From assembly GCF_050920415.1 (NCBI RefSeq), contig NZ_CP169309.1: DNA of 64,000 nt; one strand, 5' to 3'. This DNA is from Escherichia coli. Lineage in GTDB: Bacteria; Pseudomonadota; Gammaproteobacteria; Enterobacterales; Enterobacteriaceae. The translations under genes and the position numbers were made by a program. The notes below the pieces were generated by a model. The model was given only the letters and a program-made list of their open reading frames with translations, was not told the origin of the DNA and ran no database searches. Positions 1-3,307 of the stretch are shown one piece after another; the first letter of the stretch is position 1, and every line of letters starts with the position of its first letter.

Positions 1-342
1 AAAACGGTGATCTATTGCACAACGAGGAAGCTAAAAGGCTTCCTTTGTTGATGCATGTCAACCGCAAATCTATCATTCTCCCGATATATGTTTATTTTAT
101 GTAAAATCAATTTATGTAAAAAGTCACATCATTGTAGTTAAAAAGGTTGAGTTAGATCGCAGAAACGGGTACATATAGCCCCGCAAATGTGACCACGCCC
201 GCAGATATTATTTAAATCAGAGCCATAGAGGCCACGCTGGCGAGGCATCAATCTTTACGATCTGTATAAAGACGGATTGTTGATGATGTGTTAAAATTGA
301 TGTAAACAAGTTGTGAAGTAAATGTGCTTCCGGGGAAAATAA

Positions 343-687
343 GTGACTTCATTACAACTCTCAATCGTCCATCGACTGCCGCAGAACTATCGCTGGTCTG
401 CTGGTTTCGCAGGTTCGAAGGTTGAACCGATTCCGCAAAATGGACCGTGCGGTGACAACAGCCTTGTGGCGCTTAAATTGCTTAGCCCGGATGGTGATAA
501 TGCATGGTCGGTGATGTACAAACTAAGCCAGGCGTTAAGCGACATCGAAGTTCCATGCTCGGTACTGGAGTGTGAAGGTGAGCCGTGCCTGTTTGTAAAT
601 CGCCAGGACGAGTTTGCTGCAACATGCCGATTGAAAAATTTTGGTGTGGCAATTGCCGAACCCTTCTCAAACTACAATCCTTTTTAA
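343..687 (+). CDS. yejG: YejG, small conserved protein of unknown function (114 aa)
   Basis: ORF track 343..687 begins [21 protein letters not shown] start seen at 343; sits convergent with yejF as in K-12 synteny. Confidence 0.85.
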
Positions 688-2281: not shown

Positions 2282-3307
2282 CTACACCGCCTTATTAGGA
2301 TCAAATGCGTCGCGGACGGCTTCACCAATAAAGATCAGCAAAGACAACAATATCGCCACCGACAAGAAGGCGGTGATCCCAAGCCACGGGGCCTGAAGGT
2401 TATTTTTCCCTTGTAACAGCAGTTCGCCGAGTGACGGTGAACCGAGCGGCAGACCGAAGCCGAGGAAATCGAGTGAGGTCAGGGTGGTGATCGAACTACA
2501 TAAAATAAACGGTAAAAAGGTGAGGGTAGCGACCATGGCATTTGGCAACATATGACGCAGGATGATACTGCGATCGCTGACGCCAAGCGCCTGCGCCGCA
2601 CGGATGTAGTCGAAATTACGGGTACGTAAAAACTCCGCCCGCACCACGCCGACCAGACTCATCCAGCCAAACAAGACGGTAATTGCCAACAGCCACCAGA
2701 AGTTAGGCTGTACGACGCTGGAAAGTAAAATAATCAAAAACAGCGTCGGCATCCCCGACCATACTTCAATAAAACGTTGCCCCCAGAGATCGACTTTACC
2801 GCCGTAATAGCCTTGTAGCGCCCCCGCCAACACGCCCATCACGCTGGAGCAGAGGGTCAGCATCAGGCCAAACAGAACTGAGATCCGCGTGCCATAGAGA
2901 ATGCGCGCCAGCACATCGCCGCCATTGGCATCCGTTCCCAGCCAGTTTTGCCGGGAGGGTGGAGAAGGGAAGGGCTTATCGGTAGCAAAGTTGATACTGG
3001 TAGCACCAAAGCGAATCGGTGCCCACAGTACCCAGCCTTTATCTTCCAACCGCTGTTTCAGCCACGGGTCCTGATAATCAGCCTGGCTTGCCAGCGGGCC
3101 GCCAAAATCGCTTTCGCTGTAGTTTTTCAACAACGGGAAATACCAACTGCCGTCATAACGTACCAGCAACGGTTTATCGTTGGCGATAAGTTCAGAACAC
3201 AAACTCAAACCAAATAAGACGAGGAAAATCCATAACGACCAGTAGCCGCGACGGTTATGACGAAAACGCGCCCAACGGGCCTGATTGACGGGGCTGAGTC
3301 GCGACAT
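2282..3307 (-). CDS. yejE: Peptide ABC transporter permease
   Basis: 341 aa multi-TM ORF, stop/start coupled to yejF and yejB; matches K-12 YejE length. Confidence 0.9.
   Translation of the reverse strand: MSRLSPVNQARWARFRHNRRGYWSLWIFLVLFGLSLCSELIANDKPLLVRYDGSWYFPLLKNYSESDFGGPLASQADYQDPWLKQRLEDKGWVLWAPIRFGATSINFATDKPFPSPPSRQNWLGTDANGGDVLARILYGTRISVLFGLMLTLCSSVMGVLAGALQGYYGGKVDLWGQRFIEVWSGMPTLFLIILLSSVVQPNFWWLLAITVLFGWMSLVGVVRAEFLRTRNFDYIRAAQALGVSDRSIILRHMLPNAMVATLTFLPFILCSSITTLTSLDFLGFGLPLGSPSLGELLLQGKNNLQAPWLGITAFLSVAILLSLLIFIGEAVRDAFDPNKAV

Follow-up and report, generated by a model that had tools for sequence, protein, structure and literature searches.

The stem-loop at positions 26-50 of the window (the whole 64,000-nt stretch of Escherichia coli DNA analysed here, numbered from its first base) probably serves the E. 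coli drug-efflux gene bcr, and hence the rsuA-bcr transcripts, as a Rho-independent (intrinsic) terminator. It combines a G+C-rich stem-loop and a U-run with a site after the end of a gene on the same strand and with conserved pairing, the features by which intrinsic terminators are recognised. As such, it is an ordinary member of a textbook class that has not previously been described for bcr, and no relevant paper on a bcr terminator emerged from a literature search. The hairpin is therefore routine and matters little, apart from a conserved palindrome resembling an FNR box that is fused to its tail.

The 3′ end of bcr and its genomic setting

The first-pass annotation had named bcr as the upstream gene by synteny with K-12, and annotation, translation, and gene order all agree with it. 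The start of the window is 100% identical to E. coli NZ_CP169399.1, in which the annotated bcr CDS ends at the base corresponding to window position 10 (bcr at L001 1820-3010, with window position 1 at L001 3001). Extending the sequence upstream and translating it, the check that had been proposed for this gene, recovered a coding frame for a full 396-aa Bcr with the C-terminal end ...ASRPKKR. Positions 1-10 (+ strand) hold the last seven coding bases of this frame (...K R) and its stop codon TGA at 8-10. The gene order rsuA-bcr-yejG-yejF in the identical strain is also that of K-12 MG1655, where bcr occupies 2278570-2279760 on the minus strand and a window position p corresponds to K-12 2278580 - p. 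The left edge of the window is thus fixed, with the bcr stop codon at 8-10 and the probable bcr terminator at 26-50.

All but one of 5426 complete E. coli genomes (5425) contain a match to the first 700 bases of the window, one of these at 100%, and bases 1-52 are invariant among six diverse E. coli strains. Since this invariance within the species is uninformative on structure, bcr loci of other Enterobacteriaceae were compared. Strain 23CRST038 (L004 ~2953-3000, equivalent to window 38-85) carries a 48-bp tandem duplication that starts inside the 3′ arm of the hairpin and doubles the T-run, the palindrome, and the TATCAT region.

Sequence, fold, and predicted strength of the hairpin

Bases 1-50 of the window read AAAACGGTGATCTATTGCACAACGAGGAAGCTAAAAGGCTTCCTTTGTTG, and the bcr stop codon is separated from the stem by 15 nt on the same strand. 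The core stem-loop (26-43, + strand) consists of the perfectly complementary arms GGAAGC (26-31) and GCTTCC (38-43), with four of the six pairs being G-C, and the loop TAAAAG (32-37), in which U32.G37 could close an AAAA tetraloop. It is directly followed by the T-rich tail TTTGTTG (44-50, + strand), the U-tract of the RNA. This is exactly the arrangement that the first-pass annotation had read at 26-50. The stem can be extended to 24-45 by A25-U44 and G24.U45, giving 9 bp with an AAAA loop and lowering the folding energy from -9.1 kcal/mol (26-43) to -12.0 kcal/mol (24-45). Folding of bases 1-60 further revealed an extended imperfect stem, UGCACAACGAGGAAGCU...GGCUUCCUUUGUUGAUGCA (16-55), which is formable in the released RNA of either strand, with energies of -20.8 kcal/mol on the + strand and -17.5 kcal/mol on the - strand. 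The RNA fold of 1-60 as a whole has an energy of -21.7 kcal/mol (z = -4.1), a stability that none of 200 dinucleotide shuffles reached.

The tail, TTTGTTGA, contains five T in eight bases and is interrupted, making it weaker than the consensus. A d'Aubenton-Carafa-type d score calculated with modern energies was +9.4 and +2.8 for two shorter stem definitions and -6.7 when the stem was drawn to 24-45; the predicted strength of this probable terminator in E. coli is modest. Canonical Rho-independent terminators of E. coli have reportedly been characterised by d'Aubenton-Carafa and colleagues in 1990 and in later genome-wide predictions. The bcr hairpin is like them in its G+C-rich stem of 6-9 bp, its loop of 4-6 nt, its adjoining T-rich tail, its location a few tens of bases past the stop codon, and the maintenance of its stem by compensatory change. 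It differs from them in that the U-tract is interrupted by a G, leading to a borderline predicted strength, and in that the tail is shared with a conserved palindrome.

If the hairpin acts in this way, RNA polymerase would pass the TGA at 8-10 and the nascent RNA would form the G+C-rich stem at 26-43, after which the weak rU-dA hybrid over UUUGUUG (44-50), where we infer that termination takes place, would allow release of the transcript ~35-40 nt past the stop codon. In the released RNA, the stem could zip further (16-55), which would shield the 3′ end from exonucleases. The role of such a terminator would be to keep bcr transcription out of the densely conserved control region of yejG. Promoters serving yejG itself have been mapped further downstream, so a stop signal that separates it from bcr is to be expected.

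Motif enrichment in the window

Hairpins of this kind are more frequent in the window than expected by chance. A custom scan (perfect 6-bp stem with four or more G-C pairs, loop length 3-8, and five or more T among the 8 nt that follow) of both strands of the 64-kb window returned 21 matches (~12 sites), among them the hairpin at 26-43, compared to 2.3 +/- 1.6 matches in 30 dinucleotide shuffles, i.e. a ~10x enrichment of the hairpin-plus-T-run class. The chance of finding this motif on one strand of a given 50-nt stretch is about 1 in 1000 (~0.001). A generic terminator scan did not include 26-50 among its calls, which can probably be explained by the stem extension absorbing T44 and T45, so that only four T are left in the tail window.

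This miss and the short stem (6-7 bp) are what could be held in favour of an inverted repeat that arose by chance or belongs to a dispersed, REP-like family, a reading that is effectively refuted by the motif counts versus shuffles, the fold z-score of -4.1, and the covariation across genera described below. A dispersed palindromic repeat was also rejected on copy number, as the region is single-copy, the median across 5425 E. coli genomes being one location in each. Nor does it belong to an Rfam family: a scan of bases 1-1000 gave as its sole match a spurious eukaryotic lncRNA with 22 bits against a gathering score of 80.

Conservation of the hairpin across the Enterobacteriaceae

In almost every one of 80 bcr loci retrieved from other Enterobacteriaceae, the bcr stop codon is directly followed by a G+C-rich hairpin and a T-run, with stems that differ in sequence. 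The variants include GGAAGC/GCTTCC, GGGGC/GCCCC, GGGAGC/GCTCCC in some Citrobacter, GGCCCG/CGGGCC in Enterobacter, and GGGGCG/CGCCCC in Klebsiella and Raoultella. Because these stems stand in different registers, RNAalifold found no consensus pairs in an ungapped alignment anchored on the palindrome. We therefore built a covariance model from 21 sequences sharing the same register and realigned its 68 matches. In the resulting alignment of 68 orthologues, 95.3% of the cells form a standard pair and all seven pairs are changed on both sides. Compensatory cells numbered 91, compared to 28.6 +/- 3.9 in shuffles (none of 500 reached the observed value) and to 8-24 when the partners were slid by 1-3 columns; having been fitted to the model structure, the alignment is biased in favour of pairing, although the effect is also obvious by eye. 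These comparisons indicate that the pairing of the stem is under selection. The impression of an intrinsic terminator, formed in the first-pass annotation from the letters of this single site, is thus supported by the compensatory substitutions in 68 orthologous loci, together with the position after bcr and the T-rich tail.

Of 76 distinct orthologous sequences, 63 retain the T-run, counted as at least five T in the eight bases that precede the GA of the palindrome. In the Citrobacter freundii group (nine sequences), Salmonella, and Pluralibacter, the stem is kept and even lengthened, with two to three T and no T-run, which points to selection on the stem in these organisms and not on a canonical terminator. 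Most simply, the value of the stem beyond canonical termination is protection of the 3′ end. Taken further, the stem-loop might be mainly a protecting structure at which transcripts of either strand, ended elsewhere (e.g. by Rho), are trimmed, so that it would not be a true release site. The C. freundii group, which loses the T-run while lengthening the stem, agrees with this view, and Rho-terminated RNAs are typically trimmed by 3′-5′ exonucleases (Adams et al. 2021). We nevertheless consider this explanation rather unlikely, as pure protection would not need the strong T-run found directly after the stem in the 63 orthologues. In addition, a stem 15 nt past the stop codon comes too soon for the loading of Rho on untranslated RNA, for which Adams et al. 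2021 cite >50 nt. The two roles are compatible and not exclusive.

In two Salmonella enterica subspecies, diarizonae and arizonae (L010 and L021), the conserved module of hairpin and palindrome is separated from the bcr stop codon by an extra insert of 45-60 nt with its own strong hairpin, GTCCCTCAA...TTGAGGGAC.

Published RNA 3′ ends and the opposite strand

Published RNA 3′ ends give a different picture for the two strands. The available entries of Supplementary file 1 of Adams et al. 2021 (Term-seq) contain no bcr-strand 3′ end at the hairpin. This sense end could be missing because bcr is a weakly expressed gene below the cut-off; in the same available part of the table, the lowest counts are ~23,000 for the minus strand versus ~850 for the plus strand. 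Nor is the hairpin site listed in the supplements of TERMITe and TerminatorNet. Rho is inhibited by bicyclomycin, which in turn is exported by Bcr. The bicyclomycin data set of Adams et al. 2021 places a Rho-dependent region at K-12 2279713 (-), 47 nt into bcr (L002 ~3714). Full-length bcr RNA could consequently be scarce, and early Rho-dependent termination in bcr, combined with the export of bicyclomycin by its product, could constitute a feedback loop. The main text of Adams et al. 2021 does not discuss the Rho-dependent region within bcr.

The sole published 3′ end at the site is on the opposite strand. Three rows of Supplementary file 1 (Adams et al. 2021), antisense to bcr, report, together with its flanking sequence, an RNA 3′ end at K-12 2278567 (+), corresponding to window position 13 on the - strand, as mapped through the K-12 bcr coordinates. 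This end falls 3 nt outside the base of the extended stem and 13 nt from the core stem, on a strand where the hairpin has no U-tract and a terminator score of -24 to -37, and thus provides further support for a protecting function of the stem. It looks like an exonuclease-trimmed or hairpin-stalled end and not like the product of a canonical terminator. The RNA possibly originates from yejABEF read-through across yejG in antisense, or it may be a separate antisense RNA. It is a minor point of wider interest that a published opposite-strand RNA end is found at this very hairpin.

A bidirectional terminator was also considered and rejected, given the low score of the opposite-strand tail TCGTTGTG and the co-directional orientation of bcr and yejG. 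Bidirectional terminators are said to occur between convergent genes, as reportedly described by Ju and colleagues in 2019. The bcr site resembles them in that a single hairpin is accompanied by a 3′ end of RNA transcribed against the direction of the preceding gene, and in that an upstream A/C-rich stretch, CACAACGA, pairs with the tail of the hairpin. In contrast to them, it is flanked by genes that point in the same direction, its opposite-strand tail UCGUUGUG is devoid of a U-tract, and the mapped end is 13 nt away from the core stem.

Further along the window, a very abundant 3′ end is recorded by Adams et al. 2021 at K-12 2277685 (-), i.e. window ~895 (+). It follows the yejG stop codon by ~208 nt and lies inside yejF, antisense to the end of that gene; a Rho-dependent region is given at 2277275 (-). 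Hence, yejG seems to have a long 3′ UTR that overlaps yejF.

An FNR-box-like palindrome fused to the tail of the probable terminator

The T-rich tail runs directly into a palindrome, TTGATGCATGTCAA (48-61), whose first bases it shares, with T48-T49-G50 belonging to both. A pattern search showed that it matches 9 of the 10 bases of the FNR box TTGAT-N4-ATCAA. Single matches of this quality carry little information, since four sites with one mismatch were found in the 64 kb compared to 3.0 expected, i.e. they are not rarer than chance. The weight of the evidence for an FNR-type site comes instead from its conservation. Of 80 sequences, 73 have a match to 9-10 of the 10 FNR-box bases at the corresponding position, where it is fused to the T-run, and the columns of the palindrome core are invariant or near-invariant, while the flanks vary. 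A second RNA hairpin was rejected as an explanation for this symmetry: position 5 of the palindrome (T/C versus A/G) does not covary with its partner, and TTGAC...ATCAA is common. The lack of covariation at this position points to a DNA site and not to an RNA stem.

The exact site, TTGACATGCATCAA, is listed near yejG as a predicted FNR site with a PatSer score of 14.14 in Table S6 of Myers et al. 2013. In that study it is one of the "silent" sites, for which FNR ChIP-seq gave no peak under anaerobic conditions in glucose minimal medium, and it overlaps a region of Fis enrichment. The same authors report an aerobic-only sigma-70 peak for yejG, with a value of 4.0 in the aerobic-versus-anaerobic table (Myers et al. 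2013); the direction of this ratio was deduced from the nap genes, which have values <1, and the nuo genes, with values >1. In the available parts of the FNR-dependent tables of Myers et al. 2013, yejG is absent. With 9 of the consensus bases, the palindrome at 48-61 is thus itself a silent FNR site in the sense of that study. It is unlike a classical FNR operator in that it is not at the classical activation position, its centre being ~130 and ~250 bp upstream of two mapped yejG starts, in that it shows Fis enrichment instead of an FNR peak, and in that it is fused to a terminator tail. In contrast to a silent site that arose by chance, however, it is conserved across many genera, which argues that the predicted site is functional.

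One could also regard the entire T-rich tail as a DNA-level element, i.e. the TTGAT-N4-ATCAA operator, a yejG -35 hexamer (TTGATG), or both, next to which the hairpin would be incidental. The palindrome is indeed better conserved in sequence than the stem and is a listed FNR-motif match, and the promoter-like pair TTGATG-17-TATCAT (48-76, + strand), which scored 9/12 in our consensus scan and is a prediction only, was proposed as a promoter in the bcr-yejG spacer on the basis of RpoD genomic SELEX (Shimada et al. 2014). No transcription start has been mapped to this pair, and outside Escherichia and Citrobacter the TATCAT sequence is not conserved. Compensatory changes at all seven stem pairs across genera are difficult to reconcile with an incidental hairpin, three loci (L065, L074, and L079) have the hairpin without the palindrome, and an operator would account for 48-61 but not for 26-47. 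We therefore regard this possibility as very unlikely. Most likely, an operator-like palindrome and the hairpin, here read as the bcr terminator, coexist.

A bolder interpretation would combine the two into one conserved composite element, in which a regulator bound to the FNR-type palindrome acts at the release point. We consider this unlikely. If correct, FNR under conditions that have not been sampled, or another protein of the CRP/FNR family, could block RNA polymerase there or make it pause. This would tune the read-through that reaches yejG from bcr or, conversely, bcr transcription could clear the operator, and the "silent" FNR site of K-12 would be functional. A predicted silent FNR site that is conserved in the Enterobacteriaceae and overlaps a terminator tail, together with the opposite-strand RNA end at this hairpin, could serve as a small test case for sequence sharing between operators and terminators.

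The bcr-yejG spacer and the promoters of yejG

The next gene, yejG, is located at 343-687 (+ strand) according to its ORF and annotation. Synteny of bcr and yejG is seen in each of the 78 loci whose length allows a judgement, and the spacer between them hardly varies in length. Primer extension placed yejG starts at 2,276,419 and 2,276,299 in older K-12 coordinates (Chung et al. 2013), which translate to window positions ~184 and ~304. They lie 7 nt after CATATA (172-177) and TAAAAT (292-297), respectively. Two long blocks of the spacer, 88-180 and 277-320, are nearly invariant across ~19 genera and include the imperfect direct repeats GTAAAATCAATTTATGTAAAAA and GTCACATCATTGTAGTTAAAAA. This is a dense, uncharacterised control region of yejG, a gene of unknown function. 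The only small ORFs in the spacer are mechanical ones of 20-38 aa without support, and these were discarded as candidates.

Two further observations concern this region. There is a possible CRP-type half-site, TCACA, near 123-128, and yejG has been listed as a CRP SELEX target. Finally, strain EC24.26 (L003) has a 15-bp deletion, equivalent to window 96-110, by which one TTTATGTAAAATCAA repeat unit is lost from the conserved block.
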